In this document: piece by piece, positions 21,485-53,640 of the stretch
Layout of the letters: the number at the start of each line of letters is the position of its first letter
How positions within the stretch are numbered: position 1 is the stretch's first letter
From: a phage
NCBI GenBank assembly: GCA_026683435.1
Contig: GCA_026683435.1_4866.1
Strand: one strand, 5' to 3'
DNA length: 64,000 nucleotides
Position numbers and translations under genes: made by a program
The notes under the pieces: model-generated
Told to the model about the DNA's origin: nothing
The model's database searches: none
The model's input: the letters and a program-made list of their open reading frames with translations, nothing else

Positions 21485-22015
21485 TTAGAGATAGTGTTCC
21501 ACTATCACTTCTAACTCGCGGAAGATATGTGCGGTTTGATTAAACAGCGTATCCTGCTCGGGTGTTTGTTTATCAAATGCACGCTGATACAGTTCTAACA
21601 TAGCGAAGACTGTGCGCAGTTTTTCGCGCGCGACTTCAGGATCGGATGCACCGAAATAGTGATCAAGCCATCGTGGTTCTGAACTCTCTCCTTTTCTATC
21701 GATTGCCTCAGGCAACTCTAACCAACGTTGATTGGGAATGTTGCTACTGGATACACGGTTATACTCAGAAATGAAGAATTCCAATCGCTCCACCAACGTG
21801 TCAAAATCTCGAATACGTAATTCGAGTTGTCCACGCAATGAAAAAGGAAGGTATTCTTTCCCATTATATTCCAGAGGCTCTGTAATGAGTTCTAAGCCCA
21901 CCATCACTCTGTGCAGGGTGTTATGGGTATTCTTATGAAACTCAGCCTCCAAAGAGCGTCTGCGAGCTTCTACAGCCTTACGACGCAGGAGTGTTGAAAG
22001 CCATTTAAAAAGCAT
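21485..22015 (-). CDS. hypothetical protein
   Basis: 176-aa ORF. Confidence 0.65.
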   Translation of the reverse strand: MLFKWLSTLLRRKAVEARRRSLEAEFHKNTHNTLHRVMVGLELITEPLEYNGKEYLPFSLRGQLELRIRDFDTLVERLEFFISEYNRVSSSNIPNQRWLELPEAIDRKGESSEPRWLDHYFGASDPEVAREKLRTVFAMLELYQRAFDKQTPEQDTLFNQTAHIFRELEVIVEHYL

Positions 22016-22046
22016 AGGTGTTATCCTATTATGAGATGTTGTCTCG

Positions 22047-22081
22047 GATAGATAATATCTGTCTGAGTTCTTTTTGAGATG
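22047..22081. promoter_or_regulatory. conserved intergenic element, copy A
   Basis: GATAGATAATATCTGTCTGAGTTCTTTTTGAGATG; aligns with copies at 31167, 40259, 49531. Confidence 0.5.
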
Positions 22082-22091
22082 AGGTTATCCC

Positions 22092-22562
22092 ATGAGCGAA
22101 GAAGTGAAATACCAAGCGTTCGACGGAGATGTGGACAACGAAGATTCGCTTCTCCGCCAAACACAACAGCTACGCGTTAAGCTCGTCACGGATATGGTGA
22201 ACGACGGTGAAGTACACAAAGACTTAAAAGCCGTCGACCGAATCGAACGCCTAATCAACGGCATCGACAAACAGGTCATGACGAAGCGGAAAATTAAAGC
22301 TGCTGAGAAAGGCGCTGAGGCGACTCAAGATTTGGCCAACAGTTTAAACGGCTTCTTAATGACCCGTGCTGGCGTTGGTATCAAACGTCACGATGATGAA
22401 GAAGATTTAAATAACGGATACCAACCCACCGTCCCACAGATTGCCGCAGTACGGCCTCCGAAAGAAGGTGAGTTGGCACCAGTAGGCGAAAAGATTGACG
22501 TTGACCAGATCATGGCGTCTGCGTTTGCGAGTCGTCGTCCTGCTGATGACGACGAAGACTAA
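22092..22562 (+). CDS. acidic hypothetical protein
   Basis: 156-aa ORF with RBS gaggt; lone plus-strand gene in a minus block. Confidence 0.6.
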   Translation: MSEEVKYQAFDGDVDNEDSLLRQTQQLRVKLVTDMVNDGEVHKDLKAVDRIERLINGIDKQVMTKRKIKAAEKGAEATQDLANSLNGFLMTRAGVGIKRHDDEEDLNNGYQPTVPQIAAVRPPKEGELAPVGEKIDVDQIMASAFASRRPADDDED

Positions 22563-23238
22563 ACAGCGCAGTGTCCTTTACGTCAGTACCGACGTATTGT
22601 GCAAGAAAACGGGTGGACTCCTTAAAGGGGTTCACCTTATCTCTTTTTATTTGCGCGATTGCTTCTTCCGTTAATTCGCTGGTCAGCATACTCGGTCGGG
22701 TAATCGTAAAATCCGGAATCGGTTTCTGGAAATGGTTCGCGTGTTGTTCTATCCACGGATACCAATCGTACATTATCCAACCATCCCATGCAGATGCAAG
22801 TCGTCCTGGTGTAAGATCGCTGTGAGGAATAACAACGACGTCTACTTGCACTTCGTTATAGTAGTAACGCAGTTCTTCCAAAAACGCATGACGTTCTTCA
22901 TCATCGAGATCAGCGTATGGCCACAGGTTAAACGTTAAGACAGGTCGCTCGATAGGAGCGTGCATCTGTATCGTCATTAACATTGCCTGTACTTCGTTCT
23001 TTAGCGTAAGCAACATTTCTGTTGGCTGCGCGTTCTGCAACGCGCGTTTATCACGCTCCGCGAACTTTTTATTCCAGTCCTGAATTCCTACCACTTCGGC
23101 CCACGCATCTGTGAACCGCATCCGATACACTTCTAAATCAAGCTTCTCTAATACATCAGGCTGCAGCACTTTCGCCCAACCAATTCGTGTATCGAAGATT
23201 GTGTCGATATCGACTAAGAAACGGCGTCCTAATCTCAT
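22510..23238 (-). CDS. hypothetical protein
   Basis: 242-aa ORF. Confidence 0.65.
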   Translation of the reverse strand: MRLGRRFLVDIDTIFDTRIGWAKVLQPDVLEKLDLEVYRMRFTDAWAEVVGIQDWNKKFAERDKRALQNAQPTEMLLTLKNEVQAMLMTIQMHAPIERPVLTFNLWPYADLDDEERHAFLEELRYYYNEVQVDVVVIPHSDLTPGRLASAWDGWIMYDWYPWIEQHANHFQKPIPDFTITRPSMLTSELTEEAIAQIKRDKVNPFKESTRFLAQYVGTDVKDTALFSLRRHQQDDDSQTQTP

Positions 23239-23903
23239 TCCGGGCGTCCTAAGTTGTTACCGATGTGCATTGCTTTAAAGTACGAAGACCATGTACGCGG
23301 CGCTTTTGAACTAGTACGCTCAGCCCCTTCCAGGTTGATGCGACCTTTACCGGTTTGCCGTAGCGATTGATAGAACGCACGTTGTAACGTATCGTTACCA
23401 CCACGCGCCCACAGGAACTCCTGGAGCGTTGAGTCGTGTCCATCCGAGTACATGATGTACGCTTCTGGAAACGAAACACCCGAAGCTTTGGAAGGCCCTA
23501 CTACCTGACCTGAGAGTTTATCGCGGACTTTATCGTTCTTCGCCACCGCCATTTTCTTCTCATGCATCTGCGTCTGGCGACGTGCAGGCAGGCGGAAGAC
23601 TAAATGGGGGTAACGGGTACGTTGTAGGATACCGGTTTTCGGTTCCGTGAGCCACAGGCGCTGACACAAGCTCAGTCCCATCGCTTCGCAAATTTTAATA
23701 TTGCGCATATGGTCAATTTTGACCTTGCCACCAGTTGGGTTGTAAACAGGCAACCCTTCGCGCAGACGATTGAACTCTTCGTCAGACATTCGCGAGAAAG
23801 CGCGCTTGGCAGCTTCCGCGTTAATCCCGGTCGGGTCAACTAAGTTCAGTAACTGTAAAGCATAAGCTTCTGCTTTTTTTCGCCGTGCCGGGTCTAATCT
23901 CAT
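23235..23903 (-). CDS. hypothetical protein
   Basis: 222-aa ORF, 4-nt start/stop overlap with neighbour. Confidence 0.65.
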   Translation of the reverse strand: MRLDPARRKKAEAYALQLLNLVDPTGINAEAAKRAFSRMSDEEFNRLREGLPVYNPTGGKVKIDHMRNIKICEAMGLSLCQRLWLTEPKTGILQRTRYPHLVFRLPARRQTQMHEKKMAVAKNDKVRDKLSGQVVGPSKASGVSFPEAYIMYSDGHDSTLQEFLWARGGNDTLQRAFYQSLRQTGKGRINLEGAERTSSKAPRTWSSYFKAMHIGNNLGRPE

Positions 23904-30398: not shown

Positions 30399-31133
30399 TC
30401 AGTAGTTTAGTTTCTCAGAGACTTCTTTACGGATGCGACACATCACCACCATCGCACCATTCGGAATTTGGCTCACGCAGTTATCCGTGTAAAACTTACC
30501 TTCACAGAGATAAAAGTCCAGACACATGGCATCGGTCAGTTCGTGCCACAGTGTGCCGAAACCGTACTGCCAAGGGCCAGAATGAACGACATCGTAATCG
30601 CCTTCAGTTATGCCAAAAGCGGCAGTAGCGGAAGACCACAGTGTTGAGGAGGTGGTATAAGTGTCATACCAGTAACCGAGCAGACGATGGTTACGACGTA
30701 TCTCAGCTAACCGCTCGTACATTGGGATGAATACATCTTCCACCTGCGTGACAAAATCAGCCAGCATCAACTTTTCCGTGAACCACTCGATCCACGCAAA
30801 GATTTGTTCTTCAACGTCTTGTTGACTTAACCCCGTGGAAGTGATACCTTCTTCGTAGCTGTAACCTTCGTAGACGTCAACAACATTAATCTCTACATGT
30901 TCTAGCGTGAACAACCGTTCGGTGTTGATGCAGTCGTACATCTCTTGTAACCACGCAGTGAAGACTTCTATACAGACGTTGATGGCTGTATACTTGAACT
31001 CGTCACGCAGAGGATACCACTGTGGGTTATCCTTTAGTTCGTTCTTCGCGAACGCGGGCCAATGCTTTTCGAACAACGCTTCAAAGAACTGGGGCGTGAG
31101 GTTTAAAAGCACTGGCACTTCGACTTTAAGCAT
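30399..31133 (-). CDS. hypothetical protein
   Basis: 244-aa ORF, RBS aaggag. Confidence 0.7.
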   Translation of the reverse strand: MLKVEVPVLLNLTPQFFEALFEKHWPAFAKNELKDNPQWYPLRDEFKYTAINVCIEVFTAWLQEMYDCINTERLFTLEHVEINVVDVYEGYSYEEGITSTGLSQQDVEEQIFAWIEWFTEKLMLADFVTQVEDVFIPMYERLAEIRRNHRLLGYWYDTYTTSSTLWSSATAAFGITEGDYDVVHSGPWQYGFGTLWHELTDAMCLDFYLCEGKFYTDNCVSQIPNGAMVVMCRIRKEVSEKLNY

Positions 31134-31166
31134 CGTGAATAAATTCTCCTTAAGGTTACGTCCCTG

Positions 31167-31201
31167 TAGATAATATCTATCTCAGATTACTTTAAGAGAT
31201 G
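31167..31201. promoter_or_regulatory. conserved intergenic element, copy B
   Basis: TAGATAATATCTATCTCAGATTACTTTAAGAGATG; overlaps stop codon of upstream minus gene. Confidence 0.5.
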
Positions 31202-31927
31202 CAAGAAGCGTGCTGCCTGTTCTGTAAAGTGAAAATACTCGATGGTATCAGGTTCGTCCGAGTGAATGTCATCCGGGTCCAGCAGGTAGCCCGAGATATC
31301 ATCCGTTAAAACCCAAGCGTCTCCCTGCAGGAAAATACCCATCGGTTTTTCTACCACGGACATCACCAAGTCGGAATAAGAGTTACCTTCTGCTACCTTT
31401 ACAATGTCTTCACACGGGTCAACAATATACAGGTTGCAGAGACTACGATCTTTAAGACTGCGATGAAACATCGCTCGATCGTACCAAATAACCTGAGAAC
31501 AATTATCTTCGTCACCCGCCACATCGACCAACTCTGTCCAGAACCGATGTAAGAACCAGTTCAACGCACCGGTTATTAGCTCGTTCGGTTTCAGCATTCT
31601 AACGTGTTCGTCGTACAACTCTTCCATTGTCCAGATTCGACAATGCTCACGATCGATTGTCGGTAGCGGAGGTATTTGCGGCGGGACTTGTTTAGGCATC
31701 GGTTCATCACATCTTGCGTTGTAACGCGCAATTGTTTCGGTAACCAGCTCTGCCACAACATCACAAGCCGCTTCAAATCCCCACTTGTACAACACGTCGT
31801 AATCTTCCATGGGCGCAGCACCAAACTCACGGTTCGTTGCCATCCACGACATCCATCCGTATTGCTCCACACAGTTAATCAGACTTTGTGTGTGGAGCGT
31901 GAGCGATTCACTCACGACTCGCAACAT
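31187..31927 (-). CDS. hypothetical protein
   Basis: ORF track 31187..31987; start moved to ATG 31927 (MLRVVSESL) with RBS gaggtg. Confidence 0.65.
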   Translation of the reverse strand: MLRVVSESLTLHTQSLINCVEQYGWMSWMATNREFGAAPMEDYDVLYKWGFEAACDVVAELVTETIARYNARCDEPMPKQVPPQIPPLPTIDREHCRIWTMEELYDEHVRMLKPNELITGALNWFLHRFWTELVDVAGDEDNCSQVIWYDRAMFHRSLKDRSLCNLYIVDPCEDIVKVAEGNSYSDLVMSVVEKPMGIFLQGDAWVLTDDISGYLLDPDDIHSDEPDTIEYFHFTEQAARFLHLLK

Positions 31928-31928
31928 G

Positions 31929-33443
31929 TTACACCTCTTCTTCTCGCAGTATGCGACGGTTTGCGTAATACGCACACCACAACCCATGATACTCTTTACC
32001 GATATAGATTAAGAAGTAACGGATGTAGTATTTTTCAGGACGACACACCGCGATGTAATAACGGCCTTCGGGTTCTTTAATACGGTTGATTTCCGTACGA
32101 GACGGAATATCAATACCACGCGTCAAAATAACCGAGACAGGTCGTTTACCCATCGGAAAGTCAATCTTTAACGTTATTGACTTATCGACGCTACGGTAGT
32201 ATTCCTTAACAGGCTTACCTTTGTCATCGAACAACAAGTCAGTAATATCATTTAAGACATAACCCTTTTCCTGATGCAGAACATCACGCAACGTTGTAGC
32301 GAGTTCGTCACGAATATCCAGCGCACGGTACGACAATAAGGGCGGGCGAAGCATTCTGGAGATGGCCAGGTCTTCAAAGAACCAGACATTGGAATCTTCT
32401 CCACTGAAATGCATCTTGTCTGCCGGTAATCCATCACCTGCCACGTCAACGAACTTCTTACGTTTAACGAACTCATTGTTAACAACACCGATTGGATCAT
32501 ACTGCCGCATCTTCGGTGTATCTTTCCATGCCAGGGCGGCGTGGTTGTTTACAATCGTGTAGATGTTATCCCACGGTTGTTTAGTGAACATTACGGAAAA
32601 GTGTGCATCAGGAATCATTTTCCCAATAAACACCAAGTCGTCCTTGTTCTTTGCATGGTTGCCACCAAACATGTAATAGAAAGTTTCATCTTTCACTTTT
32701 ACAGTAGGATGGTCCTCGTTCACCAACGGATAGCAATATTTAACCGTACAAATCGGCGGATATGCCGCAAGGTTCATCCCAGCGGCGATGGGCTCGGGTT
32801 CCGCGGATGCAGGCAACTCATCCTTCGACCAGTACGGCTGATATGGAACGCCGTCGTTGGTCGCTGTGATGGCTGAACCTTTTCTAGCCAATTCGTCCGC
32901 CCGGTCGTTACCGTAGTGGCCGGAGTGTCCTTTGATTTTGATAACCTTAACACCCCGTCCTTCTTTTTTCATCTGCTGTTTGATTTCCCAGATACGAACA
33001 ATAAGTTCTTTGTTCGCCAGCGGAGTACCGTCAGCACGAACCCAACCGCGTTTATGCCAGCCGTCTATCCACTCGTTAAAAGTGTTTACAACGTAACTGG
33101 CATCCACGTAGATGATATAGTTCTTCGCGCGGAAGGGCGCGTTCTCAAACAACGTGATGAAGGCGATTAACTCGCCCACATCTGAGTAGAACTCTTTCGG
33201 AACGGGAATAACGGCGTCGACAAATTGAACGGTGTCCGGCAACTCCGGACACTTCACATCCTGCGGCACTTTTTTGTATCCAACAGTGGTAATCCGTTCT
33301 GAAACACCCGGATGGCTATAAGCCTGACTGTCTTCCAAATCTCCGTTGTTGAATAAATAACCATGAATACCAGCCCCCGAACCTTTCGGGGACTCAGTAT
33401 GACTACCATCGGTATAAATAACCGCTACGTCGACGTCTTTCAT
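31929..33443 (-). CDS. RNase HI domain fused to C-terminal domain of unknown function
   Basis: N-terminal ~190 aa carry RNase HI motifs: TDGS, ELIAF, YVDASY, WHKRGW, KGHSGHYGNDRADELA; C-terminal ~310 aa unassigned. Confidence 0.85.
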   Translation of the reverse strand: MKDVDVAVIYTDGSHTESPKGSGAGIHGYLFNNGDLEDSQAYSHPGVSERITTVGYKKVPQDVKCPELPDTVQFVDAVIPVPKEFYSDVGELIAFITLFENAPFRAKNYIIYVDASYVVNTFNEWIDGWHKRGWVRADGTPLANKELIVRIWEIKQQMKKEGRGVKVIKIKGHSGHYGNDRADELARKGSAITATNDGVPYQPYWSKDELPASAEPEPIAAGMNLAAYPPICTVKYCYPLVNEDHPTVKVKDETFYYMFGGNHAKNKDDLVFIGKMIPDAHFSVMFTKQPWDNIYTIVNNHAALAWKDTPKMRQYDPIGVVNNEFVKRKKFVDVAGDGLPADKMHFSGEDSNVWFFEDLAISRMLRPPLLSYRALDIRDELATTLRDVLHQEKGYVLNDITDLLFDDKGKPVKEYYRSVDKSITLKIDFPMGKRPVSVILTRGIDIPSRTEINRIKEPEGRYYIAVCRPEKYYIRYFLIYIGKEYHGLWCAYYANRRILREEEV

Positions 33444-38857: not shown

Positions 38858-39451
38858 TTACGCATCGGCCTCAAAGAACGGCTGGTTTGGTACCACTGCG
38901 TATTCGAGCACGAACAGATGTTCTGGGGCATCTTCTGCTCGCCACAGTTTGTGGCACGTTGCCAGTTTTTCCAGGATGGTCAACCAGCTGAGCTGGCAGA
39001 AAGCACGGTCGCCGAAGAACAGTTTCTGCAGTGCAATCGACACATCCATATACGCCTGTTTGAAGTCGAGTTCTTTATCGTAACCCGCCGACTGTCGCCA
39101 CGTCAGCACGAAACCTGCTTCGGTTTCGTTAATTGCTGGACGTAAACCACAAATCCACATCAGTGCCAGATTAACGTTCCAGTCGAATTCGATACCTTCG
39201 TCTTCGTCATCACCAAACGCCGCGTTTAACGCATCGTAGAAACCGTGGTTCTCTGCGAACCATTCGCCGTACTCAACGTAGACCGGTGCTTCGACAGCTT
39301 CCCCATCGACTTCACCGATAGGACGCTCTACATAGTTCGGGTTGGTTTGAACGTGTTCCGCACCCGCGCGAATTAATTCGTAGACATCTTTGGCGGTGAT
39401 TTGTGCGGCTGTTTTAAGACCTGGATACCAGGGGCGTGTTACGAGTGTCAA
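38858..39451 (-). CDS. hypothetical protein
   Basis: 197-aa ORF, 4-nt overlap with upstream gene. Confidence 0.65.
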   Translation of the reverse strand: MTLVTRPWYPGLKTAAQITAKDVYELIRAGAEHVQTNPNYVERPIGEVDGEAVEAPVYVEYGEWFAENHGFYDALNAAFGDDEDEGIEFDWNVNLALMWICGLRPAINETEAGFVLTWRQSAGYDKELDFKQAYMDVSIALQKLFFGDRAFCQLSWLTILEKLATCHKLWRAEDAPEHLFVLEYAVVPNQPFFEADA

Positions 39452-40170
39452 AGCAATGCTCCTTTCATGATAGTGTTATTTGCCAGTAGTGTACCGGCCG
39501 CAGGTGATATTTTGGTGTACAGCGTATCCCAGATTTTCTGAAGCTCAGCGACGCGTTGGTCGCGGTCTTCCTTCGCAAAAGCAAGCTGACGTGTTTCAGC
39601 TTTCGGTGGCGTCATTTTCGCACCGTAGAATGCTGCGTCTTTTCGGTAGCTGTCCATCCAGCGTTTCCCGACCGATGATTTCTTTTTAATCATCGCAACA
39701 GCAGCGCTCTCACCGAAGCGGTAGCCTAATGCAATTTCGGCTGTGCTCGGCTTGCGTTTGAGTTGTTTTGTCAGATGATCCTCGATGTGTTTCATGTAAA
39801 CAGCAGCAAGCTGTACAGCATATTTCGGTTTATTAAGGTCTGCGTTCTTTGGGATGTTAAGTTGTTTCCCATACAGACGTATCATGGAGCGTTTAGTACC
39901 TGTCGTCATTTGGACAACACTACTAGCACTGCTCGATTTATTCTTACCCACGTTTTTATTAAAACGGGATTCGCGGTAAATGGTGGTCGCAAGCATCCCG
40001 GCATGTACACCTTGCTTTTGAGATGCAGAGACGATGAGAGGTTTAATCTCATTGAACTGGTCCTGGATAAGGACAAATTCTTTTTGATGTTTGTTACTGG
40101 TGGACTGGTAAGAAGCGTTGCTGTTGAATGTGGTCACTGCTACCAGAAGAAATAAAATGGTGCGAAACAT
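39448..40170 (-). CDS. secreted or signal-anchored lytic transglycosylase-like protein (candidate endolysin)
   Basis: N-terminal hydrophobic signal MFRTILFLLVAVTTF; motif ESRFN…SSSASSVVQMTTGT parallels the SLT motif of the giant protein. Confidence 0.65.
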   Translation of the reverse strand: MFRTILFLLVAVTTFNSNASYQSTSNKHQKEFVLIQDQFNEIKPLIVSASQKQGVHAGMLATTIYRESRFNKNVGKNKSSSASSVVQMTTGTKRSMIRLYGKQLNIPKNADLNKPKYAVQLAAVYMKHIEDHLTKQLKRKPSTAEIALGYRFGESAAVAMIKKKSSVGKRWMDSYRKDAAFYGAKMTPPKAETRQLAFAKEDRDQRVAELQKIWDTLYTKISPAAGTLLANNTIMKGALL

Positions 40171-40258
40171 GGATGTATCTCCAAACGGATTTATACTTTT
40201 CCGTTCCCAATCCGGGAAGACGGCGCGGACGGCATTGTGCTCCTTTGTAATGTGCCCT

Positions 40259-40291
40259 GATGATAATATCTATTTGAAACTTTTTGGGATG
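40259..40291. promoter_or_regulatory. conserved intergenic element, copy C
   Basis: GATGATAATATCTATTTGAAACTTTTTGGGATG; overlaps stop codon of macro-domain gene. Confidence 0.45.
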
Positions 40292-46427: not shown

Positions 46428-47054
46428 TTATTGCGGAATAAACTTACGGTGTCCGAGTGATTCCCAAAAACTATCGGTGCGCTCTTTGGTTAATTCATAC
46501 CACGCCCGCCCGGCATCAGAATCGACAACCTTTAACGTTTCAGTAAGCAGGAATTTGAACAGTTCGGCACTACGACCGGGTGCCACGCCGTCGAGATATA
46601 TCGGGATTAAATAACCGGTTTTGATTTCTTCGTACGCTTGCGATTGGTGCTGGCCAACAACCCAGGCATCAGCAGCGCTACCGACCAAAGTGGTGTTTAC
46701 AGTCAACTCATCAGAAATCCAGTTAACTGTATCAGCCATTATTGAATCGCCATTGACGTAGAAGAAAACCAAACGCTTAGGTTGCTCCACCGAACCAGCC
46801 AAATCTAATGCGGTGGTTCCGGTAAAGATCGTATTGTTAGGGTTACGTTCTGCAATAGGTAGAGCAAACCACGCTTCTAGCTGTTCCCAGCTACGCGGCA
46901 GTGCTTCTTTAAACCACTTCACCAATCGCGGGTATTCCAGAAACCCTTCTACCTCTTCTTCCATCAGATTGATACGCAGTTTGGTATCCCGACGATTCGC
47001 TTTCTGACACGTCACCATGTCGTCGATGAAACGAATCAGGGTAATCTCGTTCAT
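46428..47054 (-). CDS. hypothetical protein
   Basis: 208-aa ORF. Confidence 0.65.
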   Translation of the reverse strand: MNEITLIRFIDDMVTCQKANRRDTKLRINLMEEEVEGFLEYPRLVKWFKEALPRSWEQLEAWFALPIAERNPNNTIFTGTTALDLAGSVEQPKRLVFFYVNGDSIMADTVNWISDELTVNTTLVGSAADAWVVGQHQSQAYEEIKTGYLIPIYLDGVAPGRSAELFKFLLTETLKVVDSDAGRAWYELTKERTDSFWESLGHRKFIPQ

Positions 47055-47081
47055 GTTTAATCCTTCTTCAACAAAAAAAGA

Positions 47082-47101
47082 AGGTAGCCCGTAGGCTACC
47101 T
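47082..47101 (-). terminator. intrinsic terminator (minus strand)
   Basis: hairpin aggtagcc-cgta-ggctacct with T-run on minus strand. Confidence 0.6.
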
Positions 47102-47108
47102 CTCGTAT

Positions 47109-47609
47109 TTACAGCCCCATATGCATAAGGGAAATGATTGGGACCTTATGGCCACGAATCATTGCATACGGTTCGTACATTTGTGCGTTGGTTTCGAATA
47201 ACTCACAGGCCGGAATACGGTCACCGGTAGAGAGTTGTAAGACCTCAATTTGGTCGCCCCAGAAGTTATTCACTAATACGTGGTCGACGGTGTTGTCTTC
47301 ACGACCTTCAGGGGTGCTACGATAGGTGGCTGCATCGTACCAACCTTTGCGGTATACTTCATATCCCGCGTGAAGCATCCGGTAGTACGGACGTAGCTGT
47401 GGGGCATTCAACGCAGCATCTAACCATTCGCTGTGGATGCTGTTAATCAGTACAGTTGCTTCTGCTGGCCAGTCGGTGCGATTGAGGGTTAACTCGCCTA
47501 ACAACTTCAACTTCCAACCAGTAGAAAGAATAGCACGGGTACGTTCAGGGTTAACGTTCATCTGAGTAAAGAAAGAAGAACGGGTATCGTCGAGAATGTT
47601 CATGTTCAT
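47109..47609 (-). CDS. hypothetical protein
   Basis: ORF track 47109..47675; start moved to ATG 47609 (MNMNILDD) with RBS aagga so the upstream hairpin is intergenic. Confidence 0.6.
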   Translation of the reverse strand: MNMNILDDTRSSFFTQMNVNPERTRAILSTGWKLKLLGELTLNRTDWPAEATVLINSIHSEWLDAALNAPQLRPYYRMLHAGYEVYRKGWYDAATYRSTPEGREDNTVDHVLVNNFWGDQIEVLQLSTGDRIPACELFETNAQMYEPYAMIRGHKVPIISLMHMGL

Positions 47610-47647
47610 TTGCTTAATCCTTACGGGTAATAGTCGATTAAAAAGGA

Positions 47648-47683
47648 CCCTGCGGCTAAGTGTTGGGGAAATCACCGCAGGGC
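47648..47683 (-). terminator. hairpin with long loop (putative terminator)
   Basis: ccctgcgg…ccgcaggg 8-bp stem followed by T-run on minus strand. Confidence 0.4.
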
Positions 47684-47709
47684 CAAAGTGAGATGGGTCG
47701 TCATCTCAC

Positions 47710-47738
47710 GTTATAACATCTGTCTGAAAACTTTTCGG
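47710..47738. promoter_or_regulatory. partial copy of conserved element (copy E)
   Basis: GTTATAACATCTGTCTGAAAACTTTTCGG; shares ATCTGTCTGA with copy A. Confidence 0.3.
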
Positions 47739-48122
47739 TTACTGGTCGAGCGCTATTGAACCACGCACTTCGCCTTGTTGTTCAATAACCAGGAGGCGCT
47801 GTTTGGTTTTCGTATTGTAAGCGAGCGACGCGCGAAGCGTCGGGTCGCACGTTATTGTCTCTACTGGCACAATCTCTTGTGCCTTTGAGTTCAACAGAAA
47901 GTAATAACCTGCCGGACAAGTTTCCTCGCCCTTTGCGTGGACTAGGATGTACTCGTCGTGCCGGCTGACTTCTTCACATCTACCATCGTCGCCAGTACAG
48001 ACTTCGAACGAAGGCGGGTTGTACTGATACGGTGTGCCTGGTAGTAAATCTTCTACGCTGGTTGTAGCTGAAGCAGAAGCGGTCAAGAACACCGCCGCGA
48101 TAATACCCATAAATCCACGCAT
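47739..48122 (-). CDS. small secreted Cys-containing protein, paralog S1
   Basis: 127-aa ORF; signal peptide MRGFMGIIAAVFLTASASA; motif ILVHAKGEETCPAGYYF. Confidence 0.7.
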   Translation of the reverse strand: MRGFMGIIAAVFLTASASATTSVEDLLPGTPYQYNPPSFEVCTGDDGRCEEVSRHDEYILVHAKGEETCPAGYYFLLNSKAQEIVPVETITCDPTLRASLAYNTKTKQRLLVIEQQGEVRGSIALDQ

Positions 48123-48135
48123 GTTGTTTCCTTAC

Positions 48136-48546
48136 TTAAAAGTCGAGTTTATTGATGCCCACGTTTTTCTTAATCGTAGGGTCGTACATGATAACCGTCA
48201 GGGCATTGTCGCCTGGGTCGCGAGTAAACTCGGCAACGGCTTCACCACTGCAGGCTTGGTTATCATTATAGTTCATGGATTCGGCTTGCCCGGTTGCCAT
48301 GTTAATGACCCCGTATTCAGGGTCGCCACATGCGACACCGCCCATCGTTTTCACTAACAGATAACGGTTGTTATCGGACATCGCAACGATCTGGCAGCTA
48401 CCGCCTTGTACGTCAGAGTTCTGGCACCAGAACTCTCCGCCGTATTCGTGATCGTTAACAACTTTTGGTAACTCGATACTTCCAGCACGAGCGAAGAAGC
48501 TAATGGCCAGAGTAGCAAGTAAAACTGGTAATAAAAAATGTTTCAT
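48136..48546 (-). CDS. small secreted Cys-containing protein, paralog S2
   Basis: 136-aa ORF; signal peptide MKHFLLPVLLATLAISFFARA; motif LLVKTMGGVACGDPEYG. Confidence 0.7.
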   Translation of the reverse strand: MKHFLLPVLLATLAISFFARAGSIELPKVVNDHEYGGEFWCQNSDVQGGSCQIVAMSDNNRYLLVKTMGGVACGDPEYGVINMATGQAESMNYNDNQACSGEAVAEFTRDPGDNALTVIMYDPTIKKNVGINKLDF

Positions 48547-48568
48547 AATAGCACCTCAATTTTTTGAG

Positions 48569-49060
48569 TTATTCTGAATAGTCGATTGTTTTGATGGTTT
48601 CCATACCGTAGTACATAGCGATGGAGGCCAGAGTTTTGGTATCCGGTCGCTGTACAAAACCGGCCCTGAAATCTTTGCTGCAAATTTTCTCCACTGATAG
48701 TTCATCACGATTAGGGATAAGCCATAACGCGTCACCGTTGTGACGGTCGACTGCACCCCACCAACCTCCTGGGCAATCTTTATCGCCCGGACGGTGTACG
48801 ATAGCGACACGACCGTTGAAGGATATGTCAACTACACGACACTGTTTCTTAAGCAGCTTACGCGCATTGCACCAGAACGGCTTATCATTAAGATTGATGG
48901 TGCGGGTATATGCTGGAATGCTGCCGTTAATACTGCCCTGGAACCCGCTGAATTCGTCAGCGCGTGCCTTAGAAATCCGTAGCCCAACAACAACTGCCAT
49001 CAACAGCACAGTAAAAAGCACCACTTTGGCCAAGTGGCGATTAACGTTATTGCATTTCAT
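48569..49060 (-). CDS. small secreted Cys-containing protein, paralog S3
   Basis: ORF track 48569..49105; start moved to ATG 49060 (MKCNNV) with RBS ggagat; motif AIVHRPGDKDCPGGWWG. Confidence 0.65.
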   Translation of the reverse strand: MKCNNVNRHLAKVVLFTVLLMAVVVGLRISKARADEFSGFQGSINGSIPAYTRTINLNDKPFWCNARKLLKKQCRVVDISFNGRVAIVHRPGDKDCPGGWWGAVDRHNGDALWLIPNRDELSVEKICSKDFRAGFVQRPDTKTLASIAMYYGMETIKTIDYSE

Positions 49061-49448
49061 TTTTGATATCTCCACGAATGAGGGTGATGCGACCAACGAG
49101 CACATCGTTGTGATAAAAACTCACAGCAACCAGATCTGGTAATTCCAACGGTGATACGCTGACCGAAGTGACTTTTGGTTGATCGCACGATATGTCGATT
49201 AACCGCTGATACATTTTCAATTTCTTATCAGCGATAACCAGCCCTGTGCAGTTCTTACCGTCCGTCAGTCTGTAGATTTGTAACTGTTCGACCTCACGCA
49301 TCAGTTCCGGTTTTTCATTCGGCGCAATGCCATAATCCGAATCAGCTGATGTGTATTCAGTCACGTCTGGCTTATCGAAAGCATAAGTTGCTGCAATGCC
49401 ACATGCGGCCAGAACTACTACTGCTTGTAAGAACTTCTTGATAGTCAT
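49047..49448 (-). CDS. small lipoprotein or secreted protein S4
   Basis: 133-aa ORF; N-terminus MTIKKFLQAVVVLAACG with lipobox-like LAAC. Confidence 0.65.
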   Translation of the reverse strand: MTIKKFLQAVVVLAACGIAATYAFDKPDVTEYTSADSDYGIAPNEKPELMREVEQLQIYRLTDGKNCTGLVIADKKLKMYQRLIDISCDQPKVTSVSVSPLELPDLVAVSFYHNDVLVGRITLIRGDIKNEMQ

Positions 49449-49484
49449 GTTTTACTCTATAGTCGATTGGTTTAAAAAAGAATA

Positions 49485-49502
49485 GGCTACCCGAGGGTAG
49501 CC
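49485..49502 (-). terminator. intrinsic terminator (minus strand)
   Basis: hairpin ggctaccc-gag-ggtagcc, T-run on minus strand. Confidence 0.6.
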
Positions 49503-49530
49503 AGTTGAGTTAATCTCTTAACTCTCACCT

Positions 49531-49561
49531 AGGTAATATATATCTGAGATATTTTACAATG
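49531..49561. promoter_or_regulatory. conserved intergenic element, copy D
   Basis: AGGTAATATATATCTGAGATATTTTACAATG; begins at stop codon of upstream minus gene. Confidence 0.45.
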
Positions 49562-50150
49562 TGAACGTTGTGTTAAGAATACGAAAACCCAACGCACGCT
49601 TAGCGATTTGCATATTTGCAGGCGTAAAGTCCACCAGTTTGATTTGAACGATCGATAAATCGTAAAGCTTGTGAAGCACTTCGATTTTGTGTCGCCAATC
49701 TGTTTTTTGGTGCAGCTCTATCGTCGTTGGTATCTCGCCTAGTCTCGGCAACTGTGCTCCAAGTAAACGATGGTGGACTTTACCGTTTATAGTTGGAGTG
49801 CCTTCCGTGACCATCAGCCGCGCATCGATGTAGTTATTTCGCTTAGCGTATTCCATAAAAGTTTTGACGTTTATCTTTTCCTCGTATAGAATGCTGCGAA
49901 AGTATTCGTAAATGATGTGTCCCGCCACCTTACCACTTTCCGAGTCCGGAATAACCTTATCGATGAAAATCGCAGAGACCACTTCGCTCCCACGCGAATG
50001 CATTGTAATGACCCTATCCCCGTGCTGTGCGGCAGTTAATAATCCACTCACATCAAGCCCCACCGGAAACAAGCCACGACTACGCATTACGTGCAGGTCT
50101 TCTAACTTGTTCTCTTGCAGTCGTAAAATACGTTCTGTCATATACCACAC
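49554..50150 (-). CDS. hypothetical protein
   Basis: 198-aa ORF. Confidence 0.65.
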   Translation of the reverse strand: MWYMTERILRLQENKLEDLHVMRSRGLFPVGLDVSGLLTAAQHGDRVITMHSRGSEVVSAIFIDKVIPDSESGKVAGHIIYEYFRSILYEEKINVKTFMEYAKRNNYIDARLMVTEGTPTINGKVHHRLLGAQLPRLGEIPTTIELHQKTDWRHKIEVLHKLYDLSIVQIKLVDFTPANMQIAKRALGFRILNTTFTL

Positions 50151-50188
50151 CTCAAATTAATTTGAGTTAAGTGTAAAAAATAAGAGGA

Positions 50189-50215
50189 CTCCAGTAACCC
50201 TCGTGGTTACTGGAG
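50189..50215 (-). terminator. intrinsic terminator (minus strand)
   Basis: 11-bp stem ctccagtaacc/ggttactggag, T-run on minus strand. Confidence 0.6.
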
Positions 50216-50220
50216 ATAAA

Positions 50221-50748
50221 CTACACACTCAACGTTTCAATGAATTTGATGCGCGCTGGGTGAAATGTGTGATAAACAGTTACCGGTGCGTGCGGGCCTT
50301 CGGCTGCGTGTATTGCGCCATCGTATCCGCTCAGCAACAGATGGTCATATATCGCACCACAGTTATACGCCACTGATGCCCATAGTGGTAACTTGTCAAA
50401 CTCTTTAGGGTGTTGGTGGTAAACCTCCATCAAACCCTTTTCAGGATGACGCTCTTGGATACGCTCCCACTCATTTGTTTCAATGAGCAAGTTCCCTTTC
50501 TTCTGTGCAACTGTCTGGTATTGATGCGGGGAAAGAATCTCGCGGAAATTACCGATATCGACGAACGGGTCAGTAGGATCGTCGATAAACGGATTGGTGA
50601 TTTCCAAAGAAACGTGGTTGATTAGCCGGCTGGGATTCGCTTTAACAATTTCAGCAGGGACGTCGATGTCTTTATAGACAACTTGAGAACGTGAAAGGTT
50701 AGCCTCAACAAACGGCTTATCAGTAACAATATAACCTTCGAGTTTCAT
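50221..50748 (-). CDS. hypothetical protein
   Basis: 175-aa ORF. Confidence 0.65.
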   Translation of the reverse strand: MKLEGYIVTDKPFVEANLSRSQVVYKDIDVPAEIVKANPSRLINHVSLEITNPFIDDPTDPFVDIGNFREILSPHQYQTVAQKKGNLLIETNEWERIQERHPEKGLMEVYHQHPKEFDKLPLWASVAYNCGAIYDHLLLSGYDGAIHAAEGPHAPVTVYHTFHPARIKFIETLSV

Positions 50749-51311
50749 TATAAGGCTCCTTTAAAGTGGTATGTCATGCTTTCTACGAGGTGAGAAGTCT
50801 GGCTTTCAAAGAAGTGTAAAACGGGTTCGAGCGGCACACCACCGAGATTATAAATAGTGACGTCCTGCTTTAATCCCGCATTAACTTCACTAAGAAAAGA
50901 CTCGATTGCCTGTTCGCTGTTCGTTGTGGAGAGGGTGATCATTGTTTCACCATCTTCGCTAAAGCCTGACGCATCTTGTAAACGTAAAACGCTTGGCACA
51001 GTTTTACTAATACGGATGTCTGGCGGAAGGACGACCTCCAATTGTGGCGTACGTACTTTACGCGCAAGGTAATTAACAAACAGATTGACATCAAGCTCAC
51101 TGACTCCGCAGCAAATGCAGTTTAGAACTGTTGCCAAACTCGTTGTCTTCCGTTCAAAAATTCCCTTGATCTGTTTAGCTTTATCGCTGTAAAGGAACAC
51201 CAGTAGTTGGTCGGGATTATCTGGTAAATCCTTTTCCACTCCCTCCCATTCCGGATCGTCGCGGATATGTTCTTGCCAGATATCGTTACGTATTTCTAAC
51301 AAGCGGAACAT
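50748..51311 (-). CDS. hypothetical protein
   Basis: 187-aa ORF. Confidence 0.65.
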   Translation of the reverse strand: MFRLLEIRNDIWQEHIRDDPEWEGVEKDLPDNPDQLLVFLYSDKAKQIKGIFERKTTSLATVLNCICCGVSELDVNLFVNYLARKVRTPQLEVVLPPDIRISKTVPSVLRLQDASGFSEDGETMITLSTTNSEQAIESFLSEVNAGLKQDVTIYNLGGVPLEPVLHFFESQTSHLVESMTYHFKGAL

Positions 51312-51320
51312 ATACCCTCC

Positions 51321-51902
51321 TTACGCAACGTAAACCGCGCGATGGTTGCGGAAGCCGTGTTCTTCGGTAAGGTGGCGGGCGTAGGTGTGTTCAATAGACG
51401 GAGTATAACAAAGCAGATGCAGTTCCTGCCCTTCAGCTAGGCCAGGCAACATCACACTCAACCAGTCCATTCCACCGTTCTGTTGAAGCATGTCTTGAGT
51501 TAGCGTTAACGGTTGAACGATATGTTCCGGATTGCAATCGTCTTCACTTTTTGTAAAACGAAGAATTCCCGGACGAGAACCCTCCACCAGTACCGTGCGC
51601 GGTAAGTCAAACGCGACCACTTTCGCTTTCTGTTCGTAGGACGATTTATAACGACGTAACAGTCCAATATCGGTATCTAGTACGGTAGCCATCACGTTAT
51701 ACAGCATCACTAGACGGTCGTCGTTATCGGTGGTGACGTGTTTTACGAACACCAACATCGGAATACCTTCGCGTTGGAATACCACGAAGTCTGCTTCTTT
51801 GTATTTCTCGCAACCTTCTACTACCCGTGGGGCTTTCACGCGATAGCGGCGGGTCAGTTCTTCGTAGTTCATTTCATGTTGTTCAATAATTGGTTGTGGC
51901 AT
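51321..51902 (-). CDS. hypothetical protein
   Basis: 193-aa ORF. Confidence 0.65.
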   Translation of the reverse strand: MPQPIIEQHEMNYEELTRRYRVKAPRVVEGCEKYKEADFVVFQREGIPMLVFVKHVTTDNDDRLVMLYNVMATVLDTDIGLLRRYKSSYEQKAKVVAFDLPRTVLVEGSRPGILRFTKSEDDCNPEHIVQPLTLTQDMLQQNGGMDWLSVMLPGLAEGQELHLLCYTPSIEHTYARHLTEEHGFRNHRAVYVA

Positions 51903-51934
51903 GGTTAAATACTCTTTACGGTTAAAAAATAAGA

Positions 51935-51951
51935 AGGGGGTACAAGACCCC
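51935..51951 (-). terminator. intrinsic terminator (minus strand)
   Basis: hairpin gggggt-acaag-accccc with T-run on minus strand. Confidence 0.5.
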
Positions 51952-51962
51952 CGATGGCGAGA

Positions 51963-53237: not shown

Positions 53238-53238
53238 A

Positions 53239-53259
53239 AACTGTTACTAAAGAACAGTT
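53239..53259 (-). terminator. putative intrinsic terminator (minus strand)
   Basis: hairpin aactgtt-actaaag-aacagtt with T-run on minus strand. Confidence 0.4.
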
Positions 53260-53322
53260 GGTGTTTAAGCGACTGTGGGTTTATACACAATGCTCACTAA
53301 GATGACATCTATCTGTAAAAAC

Positions 53323-53640
53323 TTAGTATACGACCAGTACGATGCAGTCATCGATAGCCAGATTCAGTAATGAGTAGTCGTTACTTAACCGCTGGTAACG
53401 CATCCCTTTTTCAAACTGACTTAATTGTTCAGTCGGCATGACGTATACCGCGCTTTGCACTACTCCCGTAAACAGTTCGTCGTAGAACTGGTCTACTTCC
53501 CCGACTTTGTAAAAGCGCATTCTTTGATTGTTAGCAAAGACGCTGTCTAGCTTCCCGTTACTGGCTTTCTGTAACGCAGTAAAGGCACTGTCTGCATCAT
53601 TACGCTCTAATGCACTTTTAATGGTTTGAAATAAAGACAT
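53323..53640 (-). CDS. hypothetical protein
   Basis: 105-aa ORF. Confidence 0.6.
   Translation of the reverse strand: MSLFQTIKSALERNDADSAFTALQKASNGKLDSVFANNQRMRFYKVGEVDQFYDELFTGVVQSAVYVMPTEQLSQFEKGMRYQRLSNDYSLLNLAIDDCIVLVVY

Follow-up and report, generated by a model that had tools for sequence, protein, structure and literature searches.

A repeated element at gene junctions of an SPN3US-like jumbo phage is probably an early promoter of the phiKZ type

Introduction

An element of ~35 bp recurs at gene junctions in a 64,000-nucleotide stretch of phage DNA (NCBI GenBank assembly GCA_026683435.1, contig GCA_026683435.1_4866.1; hereafter the window), which raises the question of what it does and on which strand it is read. 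A preliminary description had quoted five plus-strand copies (A to D and a partial copy E), all of which we found in the window at the positions given for them, and had listed three candidate roles without commitment: a phage-specific promoter read on the minus strand, a regulator binding site, or an RNA-processing or stability signal.

The window DNA shares 98.6-99% identity with SPN3US, JN03 and similar phages (98.6% with SPN3US) and, judged by its sequence, comes from an SPN3US-like, phiKZ-related (Chimalliviridae) jumbo phage, SPN3US being a giant Salmonella phage. The SPN3US virion carries a five-subunit RNA polymerase (vRNAP), whose subunits gp240, gp241, gp218, gp42 and gp244 were seen in virions by mass spectrometry, and the genome also encodes a non-virion polymerase (nvRNAP) (PMC5105663). 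The window includes a homologue of the vRNAP subunit gp218 at 23235-23903. Literature searches on SPN3US, Seoulvirus and Erskinevirus found no promoter or transcriptome work, the searchable literature on SPN3US-type phages yielded no transcript-end, timing, rifampicin or in vitro data, and a search for the motif words themselves returned unrelated papers only. Lavysh 2016 (Virology 495:185) reportedly predicted early motifs across all phiKZ-related phages.

Results

Motif definition and statistics

Read on the minus strand, the quoted copies align as one asymmetric motif, A(-29)A..TTTCAGATAG-ATATTAYC-T-N4-G(+1)AG, whose conserved span runs from an invariant A at -29 through G+1/A+2. A search with the 11-mer core AGATAATATCT (≤2 mismatches) gave 25 matches against 13.2 ± 4.0 expected, a modest enrichment and too weak a test, so a position weight matrix (PWM; 50 nt, information content ~39 bits) was used in its place. 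Across the SPN3US genome (240 kb) the PWM identified 23 sites of 31-53 bits, all on one (forward) strand, and leave-one-out scores were all ≥21.2 bits. Among 30 Markov-1 simulated genomes of SPN3US size, none contained a match above 14 bits and the maximum was 11.6 bits; the genome-wide frequency, which had been proposed as a check on the element, is thus non-random. The single reverse-strand match in SPN3US is a palindromic overlap at copy A, so that 23 of 24 matches share one orientation.

A-29, A-13, T-12, T-10, A-8 and G+1 are invariant in the 23 sites, and A-11, T-9 and T-5 are conserved at 83-96%. The motif consists of an A-rich stretch that starts at A-29, a conserved -20 block (T-23 to T-21, C-20, A-19, G-18, A-17, T-16, A-15) and an AT-rich block of ~10 nt near -10 (A-13 T-12 A-11 T-10 T-9 A-8 Y-7 C-6 T-5), with conservation also at +2/+3 (AG). 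The sites fall into two subtypes: the commoner type I (AGATAGATATTATCT) has T at -7, and type II, which comprises the seven best-scoring sites, has C at -7 (7/23); G occurs at -11 in 4/23. In type I, the core AGATA-T-TATCT forms a perfect 5+5 palindrome and the consensus is symmetric at 8/10 positions per arm; this dyad is limited to type I and absent from type II (TATATATTACC). The repeated element is therefore real, but the terminal GAGATG that had been included in it (CATCTC in the minus-strand reading) lacks genome-wide conservation; at copy A this block belongs to the leader of the divergent gene, whose ATG follows ~11 nt downstream.

Copies in the window

The window contains copies A to D, a copy E that has lost one base, and a sixth copy, F, that the preliminary description had missed. 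Coordinates cover -29 to +1 for copies A and B.

22045..22074, minus strand: copy A, predicted early promoter, 40.5 bits; core ATATTATC at 22051-22058; predicted transcription start site (TSS) G at 22045
22036..22065, plus strand: A', reverse match over copy A, 27.9 bits; predicted TSS G at 22065
31163..31192, minus strand: copy B, predicted early promoter, 41.0 bits; predicted TSS G at 31163
40256..40285, minus strand: copy C, the weakest strong copy, 33.1 bits; predicted TSS G at 40256
47707..47735, minus strand: copy E, 1-nt deletion at -6, 8.6 bits unmodified; predicted TSS G at 47707
49526..49555, minus strand: copy D, type II (CAGATATATATTACCTAGGTG), best-scoring in the window, 52.7 bits; predicted TSS G at 49526
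53295..53324, minus strand: copy F, predicted early promoter (CAGATAGATGTCATCT), 39.2 bits over a PWM span of 53285-53334; predicted TSS G at 53295

Each copy precedes a gene: 21485-22015 on the minus strand for A (gp221 homologue; 5' UTR 30 nt), 30399-31133 for B (gp209 homologue; 30 nt), 39448-40170 for C (putative endolysin, gp198 homologue; 86 nt), 49047-49448 for D (gp180 homologue; 78 nt), 47109-47609 for E (gp184 homologue; 98 nt) and 51963-53201 for F (gp175 homologue; 94 nt). The upstream part of copy B overlaps the stop codon of gene 31187-31987. Copy A sits, as had been noted, in a divergent gap with no co-oriented transcript upstream. The predicted TSS of A' lies 27 nt upstream of the ATG of the plus-strand gene 22092-22562 (gp220 homologue), and A' scores 22.7, 10.1 and 22.8 bits in the relatives described below. 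A divergent promoter is a possible reading of A'; since the core is a palindrome, this match does not count as independent of copy A.

We compared these junctions with those of SPAsTU, Asesino and pEa_SNUABM_29, which are 67-73% identical and in which the flanks of the motif have diverged, with indels. The motif is kept at the orthologous A-D junctions of all three phages, scoring 41-42 bits at copy A and 43.6-49.1 bits at copy D, and it is kept at copy B despite coding divergence and indels in the flanks. Copy C is the least conserved (13.7-20.3 bits; its SPN3US orthologue scores 21.2 bits in leave-one-out). Copy E, previously called partial, is a true orthologous copy minus one base, because its junction scores 31.1 bits in SPAsTU and 37.8 bits in pEa_SNUABM_29 and because putting one C back at -6 raises its own score from 8.6 to 34.1 bits; in Asesino the PWM found no match >10 bits at this junction. 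The deletion alters the spacing, and copy E may be inactive in the window phage.

Placement and gene association in SPN3US

In SPN3US, where intergenic DNA makes up 6.4% of the genome, 22 of the 23 sites are intergenic, the exception (site 25232) falling within a coding sequence, and all 23 are co-oriented with the next gene, with predicted 5' UTRs of 26-135 nt. Six sites lie in five divergent gaps, before gp9, gp22 (two sites), gp34, gp221 and gp263; as these have no upstream co-oriented gene, the genes need a promoter, and the motif is the only element that the gaps share. All four nvRNAP core genes are first or second after a site (gp23, beta'N; gp34, betaC; gp35, beta'C; gp77, betaN), the three loci gp22-23, gp34-35 and gp76-77 being preceded by sites, in tandem at two of the three. 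Among the first genes after each of the 23 sites, none is a vRNAP gene and none is annotated as structural; a site also precedes gp101, a putative transcriptional regulator. The nvRNAP association is supportive and not diagnostic, because the nvRNAP genes of 201phi2-1 are not all near an early promoter (PMC11512511).

Comparison with promoters of other phages

According to a review, bioinformatic searches can detect a motif of this kind in every RNAP-encoding jumbo phage, and the motif has proved to be an early promoter wherever tested (PMC7598289). In phiKZ-type early promoters a highly conserved AT-rich block of about 10 nt is centred near -10 (PMC7598289), with extra conservation at ~-20 and -30 and a T-rich stretch upstream of -19 (PMC8244752, PMC11512511), and the early promoters of phiKZ and 201phi2-1 are conserved at -10, -20 and -30 (PMC11512511). 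The SPN3US motif shares this layout of three blocks: A-rich at -30, T-rich plus AGA at -20, and AT-rich at -10. The phiKZ early sites read AAA..TTT.AGAt.TATATTAC-N6-G, with 7 forward and 0 reverse in 50 kb, and SPN3US type II sites carry the same core word TATATTAC with N6 to the conserved G. Applied to phiKZ sites, the SPN3US PWM gave 30.3, 28.2, 18.3 and 14.4 bits; the simulated genomes had reached at most 11.6. The best of these sites (30.3 bits) precedes PHIKZ054, a gene that has a primary TSS with the early motif by dRNA-seq (PMC8244752). We do not claim that the gp22 promoters are orthologous to this phiKZ gene-54 (chimallin) promoter, because BLASTP of SPN3US gp22 with PHIKZ054 gave E = 0.67 and gp22 has no Pfam match. 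Both phages have a few dozen copies (23 in SPN3US; 28-32 in phiKZ), on the coding strand and ahead of non-structural genes.

The SPN3US sites differ from those of phiKZ in the T (not C) at -7 and the 5+5 dyad of type I, in a far more conserved CAGATAG at -20 to -14, in the conserved +2/+3 (AG), and in stem-loops at +1, which are common in SPN3US and occur at ~2/7 phiKZ sites examined. The early promoters of AR9 (AAATATATATTAT-N6-G+1) likewise have an AT-rich block ending in TATTAT, six nt and a G start; they number 41, are used by an injected multisubunit vRNAP, and were found bioinformatically and later confirmed (PMC5312081). The distance of 6 nt from TATATTA(C/T) to the invariant G is identical in the phiKZ sites and the AR9 consensus. 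AR9 differs in its uracil-containing DNA, longer pure-AT block, lack of a CAGAT block and lack of a phage nucleus. Coliphage N4 also has early promoters for an injected virion polymerase, and their inverted-repeat character recurs in type I sites and copy A. The N4 vRNAP has a single subunit, and its recognition target is a hairpin of 5-7 bp extruded from the DNA. By contrast, the dyad is missing in the strongest (type II) SPN3US sites and the conserved features are asymmetric; with an inverted repeat in type I only and not at every site, we rejected assignment to the N4-type hairpin promoter class.

Host promoters and operators as alternatives

The motif might instead represent host sigma-70 early promoters, as in T4, with TATTAT at -12 to -7 serving as an (extended) -10 box for Salmonella RNAP. 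T-12 A-11 T-10 T-9 A-8 T-7 does resemble TATAAT, a G at -14 is like an extended -10, and the spacing from TATTAT to G+1 is canonical; because of this resemblance and correct spacing, some use by the host RNAP is conceivable on sequence grounds. The preliminary description had seen no E. coli sigma70 match, and our scan agrees: a -35 consensus is absent (-35 to -30 show weak conservation and no resemblance to TTGACA), none of copies D, E and F was called on the coding strand, and the region holds 7 sigma-70-like sites, fewer than the 10.3 in shuffles. The two positions most critical for sigma-70 are -11 and -7, and the motif has C at -7 in its seven best (type II) sites and G at -11 in four sites. 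Its information content (~39 bits) and invariant bases at -29, -13 and +1 are far above those of sigma-70 promoters, and the phiKZ version of the motif is transcribed independently of host RNAP (PMC7598289). The lack of a -35 box and the C at -7 in the strongest sites argue that the motif is not a sigma-70 promoter, and we consider that reading highly improbable.

No more credible, in our estimate, is the regulator-site candidate, in which the dyad AGATA-T-TATCT would be an operator bound by a dimer of a phage-encoded DNA-binding regulator that turns early genes off (or on), the promoter proper lying elsewhere or overlapping. The perfect 5+5 palindrome of the type I core, with 8/10 symmetric consensus positions per arm, its extension to an 11-bp hairpin at copy A, and the site ahead of the putative transcriptional regulator gp101 itself would fit such a role. 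A symmetric operator, however, would not need the single orientation to the downstream gene that 23 of 24 matches have; the full motif is asymmetric, with an A-tract upstream and G+1AG downstream, the strongest subtype (type II, TATATATTACCTAGG) has no dyad, and the divergent gaps offer no other conserved element to serve as a promoter. Such an operator might also overlap the promoter, in which case both readings could hold.

Leader structures

Stem-loops of differing sequence begin at +1 to +3 in about 11-13 of 24 leaders, with compensatory changes between phages, and their position supports the predicted TSS at the invariant G. At copies D, E and F, the promoter forms a composite with a stem-loop or terminator structure. 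The following features were predicted in the window:

22033..22045, minus strand: 5'-terminal stem-loop of the copy A transcript (GAGA-CAACA-TCTC), from +1 (RNAfold)
47690..47707, minus strand: 5'-terminal stem-loop of the copy E transcript (GAGATG-ACGACC-CATCTC), from +1
49507..49524, minus strand: 5' stem-loop of the copy D transcript (GAGTTAA-GAGA-TTAACTC), from +3
53267..53295, minus strand: 5'-terminal stem-loop of the copy F transcript, from +1; SPN3US orthologue z = -3.5
47640..47684, minus strand: terminator-like hairpin and T-run in the copy E leader (GGCCCTGCGG...CCGCAGGGTC CTTTTT; RNAfold)
49475..49502, minus strand: terminator-like hairpin and T-run in the copy D leader (GGCTACCCTCGGGTAGCC TATTCTTTTTT; terminator scan)
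47630..47639, minus strand: leader box AATCGACTAT in the copy E leader, CGAC 27 nt before the ATG
49459..49468, minus strand: leader box AATCGACTAT in the copy D leader, CGAC 17 nt before the ATG

The copy D stem is replaced in Asesino by a different complementary pair, GCATTGA/TCAATGC, and the copy E 5' stem shows a compensatory change to GAGACG/CGTCTC in SPAsTU, where the copy E terminator hairpin also changes in a compensatory manner from CCTGCGG/CCGCAGG to CCCGCGG/CCGCGGG. The terminator structure of the copy D leader is kept in SPAsTU and pEa_SNUABM_29; it predicts a short RNA of ~50 nt and/or attenuation. The terminators at D and E had been taken as an argument against a promoter, a conclusion that we do not share because terminators within 5' UTRs, giving short RNAs, are documented in phiKZ and 201phi2-1 (PMC10914365, PMC11512511), in the same arrangement of TSS, hairpin and U-run within 50-70 nt, and then the gene. 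The SPN3US-clade sites and the D and E leader terminators are predicted from sequence; the phiKZ early promoters have been mapped experimentally. The combination of promoter and stem-loop or terminator in a cassette repeated at gene junctions also resembles the PeSLs of T4-type phages (PMC2839356, PMC4122927), whose promoters differ in being sigma-70 early promoters; directly downstream of copy D, gene content differs among the relatives.

Leaders also contain a conserved box, AATCGACYAT, which at copy E is identical in SPAsTU and pEa_SNUABM_29. Its reading as a phiKZ-style middle promoter centred at -22 is unlikely, because the start would fall on the ATG despite conserved Shine-Dalgarno sequences. 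A small ORF in the copy C leader was dropped, as alignment with SPAsTU showed that it is not conserved. No Rfam family passed its gathering threshold anywhere in the window.

The third candidate, an RNA processing or stability site in a polycistronic mRNA, would make the invariant G a 5' end created by cleavage and protected by the stem-loop, in keeping with the many copies between co-oriented genes and with stem-loops that start at the predicted 5' end, as with stable processed ends. The six divergent-gap sites have no upstream co-oriented transcript to process, conservation is in upstream duplex-type blocks at -29, -20 and -10 and not in RNA structure, no Rfam family is present in the window, and the homologous motifs of phiKZ and AR9 yield TEX-resistant primary 5' ends (PMC8244752, PMC5312081); we rate this account below both the host-promoter and the operator accounts. 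Least probable of all is that copy A alone is a plus-strand intrinsic terminator: the reported 11-bp plus-strand hairpin is real (-13.4 kcal/mol, z = -3.0) and is followed by the T-rich run TTCTTTTT, but it lies in a divergent promoter gap ~10.7 kb from the nearest upstream plus-strand gene (end 11309), its arms are the promoter's own -20 and +1 blocks, the middle of its stem is disrupted in Asesino, and the predicted plus-strand RNA would not contain it, because its predicted start at 22065 falls inside the 3' arm. Most likely the hairpin arises incidentally from the dyad symmetry of the motif and the overlapping reverse-strand match.

Discussion

In its minus-strand reading, the ~35-bp element is very probably an early promoter for the injected virion RNAP, by analogy with phiKZ. 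The candidate that the preliminary description had placed first, a phage-specific minus-strand promoter, is supported by orientation, position and distribution, by cross-phage conservation and by the match to the phiKZ vRNAP early promoters; the element belongs to a promoter class already known from phiKZ and is not a new kind. Our analysis established the motif and its statistics, its orientation and gene association, its conservation across phages, and its match in sequence and spacing to the phiKZ early promoters. From these we infer the polymerase, the timing and the exact TSS by analogy, and the roles of the hairpins. Among the observations that count against this reading, the copy C gene is a putative endolysin, not a typical early gene, with copy C also the weakest and least conserved, and site 25232 lies within a coding sequence.

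By analogy with phiKZ and AR9, the multisubunit vRNAP (gp240, gp241, gp218, gp42, gp244) would enter with the injected DNA and recognise, with no host sigma factor, a three-part duplex signal composed of A-29 with its A-rich stretch, T-rich DNA leading into CAGAT (~-23 to -15), and the AT-rich block at -13 to -5. Initiation would occur at the invariant G, six nt downstream of TATTA(T/C), to give transcripts that begin GAG(A) with 5' UTRs of 26-135 nt. The early products would be non-structural and include all four core subunits of the nvRNAP, which would then take over middle and late transcription. Where a stem-loop is present at +1, on roughly half of the transcripts, it probably makes the 5' end more stable, and the D and E leader hairpins probably attenuate read-through or yield short early RNAs.

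A bolder proposal, which we advance tentatively and consider rather unlikely, is that the sites are modular early-expression cassettes, each with a vRNAP promoter, a +1 stem-loop, an optional conditional terminator and, at a nearly constant 25-28 nt from the ATG, the leader box AATCGACYAT. D and E would then give abundant short early RNAs of about 50 and 70 nt; the leader box would be a post-transcriptional signal not described before (serving, for example, a phage RNA-binding protein, the export of mRNA out of the early vesicle/nucleus, or translation); the cassettes would act as recombination points that shuffle early genes, like T4-like PeSLs; and copy A, as a palindromic vRNAP promoter, may truly work in both directions.

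The natural variants described here (type I versus type II, and the -6 deletion in copy E) would be useful for studying sigma-less promoter recognition by a multisubunit vRNAP. Together, the predicted sites amount to a promoter map that can be tested in the clade of SPN3US (Seoulvirus) and Erskinevirus, a genetic model of giant nucleus-forming phages; it contains 23 early start sites predicted at single-nucleotide resolution, of which the window has six. This map points to the genes whose expression is likely to come first once the genome has been injected, the complete nvRNAP core among them.

Genome context and occurrence of the element

Across a 4-kb stretch around the element, the window shares 98.6-99.0% identity with Salmonella phages SPN3US, JN03 and SEGD1 and the SPFM phages. 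This group, SPN3US with its close relatives, consists of phiKZ-related jumbo phages (Seoulvirus) of ~240 kb. Because the plus strand of the window is the SPN3US minus strand, the minus-strand genes of the window lie on the main SPN3US coding strand, which carries 231 of 264 CDS. SPN3US packages a virion RNA polymerase (vRNAP) of five subunits (gp240, gp241, gp218, gp42 and gp244) and also codes for a second, non-virion polymerase (nvRNAP) (PMC5105663).

All five copies (A-E) of the ~35-bp repeat quoted in the preliminary description were present where it had placed them. Aligned on the minus strand, they read AAAAG-N4-5-TCAGAnAGATATTATCTA, and each sits 5' of a minus-strand gene. This holds for copy A too: its predicted start precedes the ATG at 22015 by 30 nt. 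Since the 11-mer core (≤2 mismatches) was only ~2-fold enriched (25 vs 13.2 ± 4.0), the whole element was tested instead. The complete SPN3US genome has 20 coding-strand matches to ATATTA[CT]C and 7 on the opposite strand; 14 of the 20 have a long context in common. A 50-nt motif matrix (PWM; ~39 bits) was built from these shared-context matches and iterated to convergence. It identified 23 coding-strand sites in SPN3US (31-53 bits; leave-one-out scores at least 21.2 bits), against a maximum of 11.6 bits in 30 Markov-1 simulated genomes, none of which exceeded 14; the sole opposite-strand match in SPN3US is a palindromic overlap at copy A. The repetition is therefore non-random genome-wide, and the observation is real and highly significant. 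A sixth strong copy, F, was absent from the original list.

Copies of the element in the window, with PWM scores
Copy A: 40.5 bits
Copy B: 41.0 bits
Copy C: 33.1 bits
Copy D: 52.7 bits
Copy E: only 8.6 bits
Copy F, 53285-53334, minus strand: 39.2 bits; precedes the gp175 homologue; core CAGATAGATGTCATCT

Motif anatomy and comparison with phiKZ-type early promoters

With the invariant G taken as +1, positions A-29, A-13, T-12, T-10, A-8 and G+1 are invariant, A-19, G-18, A-17, T-16, A-15, T-9, T-5 and A+2 are conserved at 87% or more, and -23 to -21 is T-rich, giving the consensus A(-29)AAAAATTTCAGATAG-ATATTATC-TAAGT-G(+1)AGAG. There are two core subtypes, type I (AGATAGATATTATCT) and the highest-scoring type II (AGATATATATTAC(C/T)TAGGTGAGAG). 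The GAGATG block, previously counted as part of the element, falls outside the motif conserved across SPN3US sites.

According to a review (PMC7598289), an AT-rich motif of ~10 nt, centred near -10 of the early operons, can be detected bioinformatically in all jumbo phages that encode an RNAP, and where transcripts have been mapped it has always turned out to be the early (vRNAP) promoter. Early promoters of AR9 read AAATATATATTAT-N6-G+1 (41 sites; PMC5312081); those of phiKZ (28-32 sites) combine an extended -10 with T-rich sequence upstream of -19, and have 5' UTRs mostly of 31-40 nt (PMC8244752); those of phiKZ and 201phi2-1 are conserved at -10, -20 and -30 (PMC11512511). The first 50 kb of phiKZ contains TATATTAC 7 times forward and 0 times in reverse, always in the context AAA..TTT.A(G/A)A..TATATTAC-N6-G, identical in order and spacing to SPN3US type II sites. 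The SPN3US PWM scored phiKZ sites at 30.3, 28.2, 18.3 and 14.4 bits, the first of these upstream of PHIKZ054, which has a dRNA-seq primary TSS with the early motif (PMC8244752). Judged by this shared order and spacing and by the PWM scores at phiKZ sites, the element has, at the sequence level, every property of a phiKZ-type early promoter, with the invariant G as its predicted start. It is very probably the SPN3US-clade version of that promoter for vRNAP, which bears out the leading interpretation of the preliminary description, a phage-specific promoter read on the minus strand.

Position and gene context

In SPN3US, 22 of the 23 sites are intergenic, in DNA that makes up 6.4% of the genome, and the next gene is co-oriented with the site in all 23. 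Predicted 5' UTRs are 26-135 nt, except at two distal or internal sites; a good site (37.4 bits) at SPN3US 25232 is internal to the coding sequence of gp30 and precedes gp31 by 261 nt. Five divergent gaps, which precede gp9, gp22, gp34, gp221 and gp263, together contain six sites, two of them before gp22. As no co-oriented gene lies upstream of these six sites, the genes there must have a promoter.

The first gene 3' of a site is always non-structural or hypothetical. A site precedes each nvRNAP core gene either directly or with one gene in between: gp23 (Rpb1 domain 2), gp34 (Rpb2 domain 6), gp35 (Rpb1 domain 5) and gp77. PMC5105663 names gp35 nvRNAP beta' and gp77 the N-terminal fragment of nvRNAP beta. 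Tandem sites occur at two nvRNAP loci, gp22-gp23 (SPN3US 15620 and 15713, in SPN3US stretch L003, as is 25232) and gp76-gp77 (SPN3US 72492 and 72690; 22492 and 22690 in stretch L004), and no vRNAP gene lies close behind any of the 23 sites. Such a distribution would be expected if the injected polymerase must first produce nvRNAP, an order of events established in phiKZ and AR9 (PMC7598289).

Conservation among relatives

We scanned syntenic 41-kb stretches of SPAsTU and the Erwinia phages Asesino and pEa_SNUABM_29, whose identity to the window over the junction tested is just 67-73%. The SPN3US PWM gave 41-42 bits at orthologous junction A, 22-35 at B, 14-20 at C and 44-49 at D. The motif block was kept while the adjoining 3' end of the upstream gene diverged, with indels, most clearly at B and D. 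Junction E scored 31 bits in SPAsTU and 38 bits in pEa_SNUABM_29, with no match above 10 bits in Asesino. The C at -6 is missing from copy E through a loss in the SPN3US lineage; with one base put back, the copy scores 34.1 instead of 8.6 bits. From the motif at this junction in SPAsTU and pEa_SNUABM_29, copy E is judged a real family member.

Gene content just 3' of the D promoter/terminator cassette (window ~49448-49475) varies among relatives, reminiscent of PeSL-mediated shuffling in T4-like phages: an extra 240-nt ORF follows in SPAsTU (stretch L006, 2532-2771) and pEa_SNUABM_29 (L008, 2459-2698), an unrelated 1287-nt gene in Asesino (L007, 929-2215), and neither in the window or SPN3US.

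Alternative readings

A host promoter was rejected: the motif alignment contains no -35 element, and its information content greatly exceeds that of sigma-70 promoters. At the two positions on which sigma-70 depends most, the strongest sites carry C (-7) and four sites carry G (-11). On the coding strand a sigma-70 scan called none of D, E and F, and the scanned region contained fewer sigma-70-like sites than its shuffles. Strict orientation to genes, asymmetric flanks and the absence of a dyad in type II sites speak against a symmetric operator. An RNA processing signal was rejected on the six sites in divergent gaps and on the 5' ends of homologous motifs, published as primary (TEX-resistant); an Rfam search of the window returned no match.

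Leader features downstream of the predicted promoters

A stem-loop starts at +1 to +3 in about 11-13 of 24 predicted transcripts. The 5' stem sequences vary from site to site, with compensatory changes between phages in the E stem (GAGATG/CATCTC to GAGACG/CGTCTC) and the D stem (GAGTTAA/TTAACTC to GCATTGA/TCAATGC), which supports the invariant G as the predicted 5' end. Stem-loops at the 5' terminus stabilise E. coli mRNAs, an effect that the +1 stem-loops would fit. Such stem-loops, often present in SPN3US-type predicted transcripts, occur at only ~2 of 7 phiKZ early sites examined.

Features of the predicted leaders
22033-22045, 49507-49524, 47690-47707 and 53267-53295, window minus strand: 5' stem-loops
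SPN3US sites 4433, 56300, 65419, 92546, 94245, 113992 and 223283: 5' stem-loops
49475-49502, minus strand: terminator-like hairpin and T-run in the D leader, between promoter and gene; conserved
47640-47684, minus strand: terminator-like hairpin and T-run in the E leader, between promoter and gene; conserved, with a compensatory change
47630-47639 (E leader) and 49459-49468 (D leader), window minus strand: leader box
SPN3US 4480, 23834, 56338, 57149, 65458, 94283, 114033, 165766, 167595, 223321 and 224200: leader box

The terminators at D and E had been taken as an argument against a simple host-type promoter; since 5' UTR terminators giving short RNAs and conditional read-through are documented in phiKZ and 201phi2-1 (PMC10914365, PMC11512511), the arrangement is compatible with a promoter. 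We predict that the two hairpins produce short early RNAs of ~50 and ~70 nt, or attenuation. Terminator-like sites are enriched across window 46900-53600 (15 vs 6.2 ± 2.9 expected). One of them, at 47081-47102, is a hairpin that separates the homologues of gp184 and gp185 and appears to be bidirectional.

Of the 11 intergenic copies of the conserved leader box, AATCGACYAT(T)A, in SPN3US, nine fall within predicted early leaders and two stand alone (gp56, gp251); every copy is on the coding strand. In 9/11 the CGAC precedes the ATG by 25-28 nt, and the E-leader box is identical in SPAsTU and pEa_SNUABM_29.

The 11-bp plus-strand hairpin described at copy A, followed by TTCTTTTT, is real. The hairpin sits in a divergent promoter gap, ~10.7 kb from the nearest plus-strand gene upstream, and the -20 and +1 blocks of the promoter itself form its arms. 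The ~75-bp gap is nearly invariant in SPAsTU and pEa_SNUABM_29. An opposite-strand PWM match over copy A (window 22026-22075, plus strand, 27.9 bits), which is not independent of that copy, would start at 22065, with the plus-strand gene 22092-22562 beginning 27 nt further downstream. It may mark a second, divergent promoter, making the site bidirectional.

The phiKZ-type early promoter class was known already, and Lavysh et al. 2016 reportedly may have logged the motif bioinformatically; what is new is its SPN3US-clade member, as predicted here. Beyond this, the most novel part of the analysis is the set of composite leader features.
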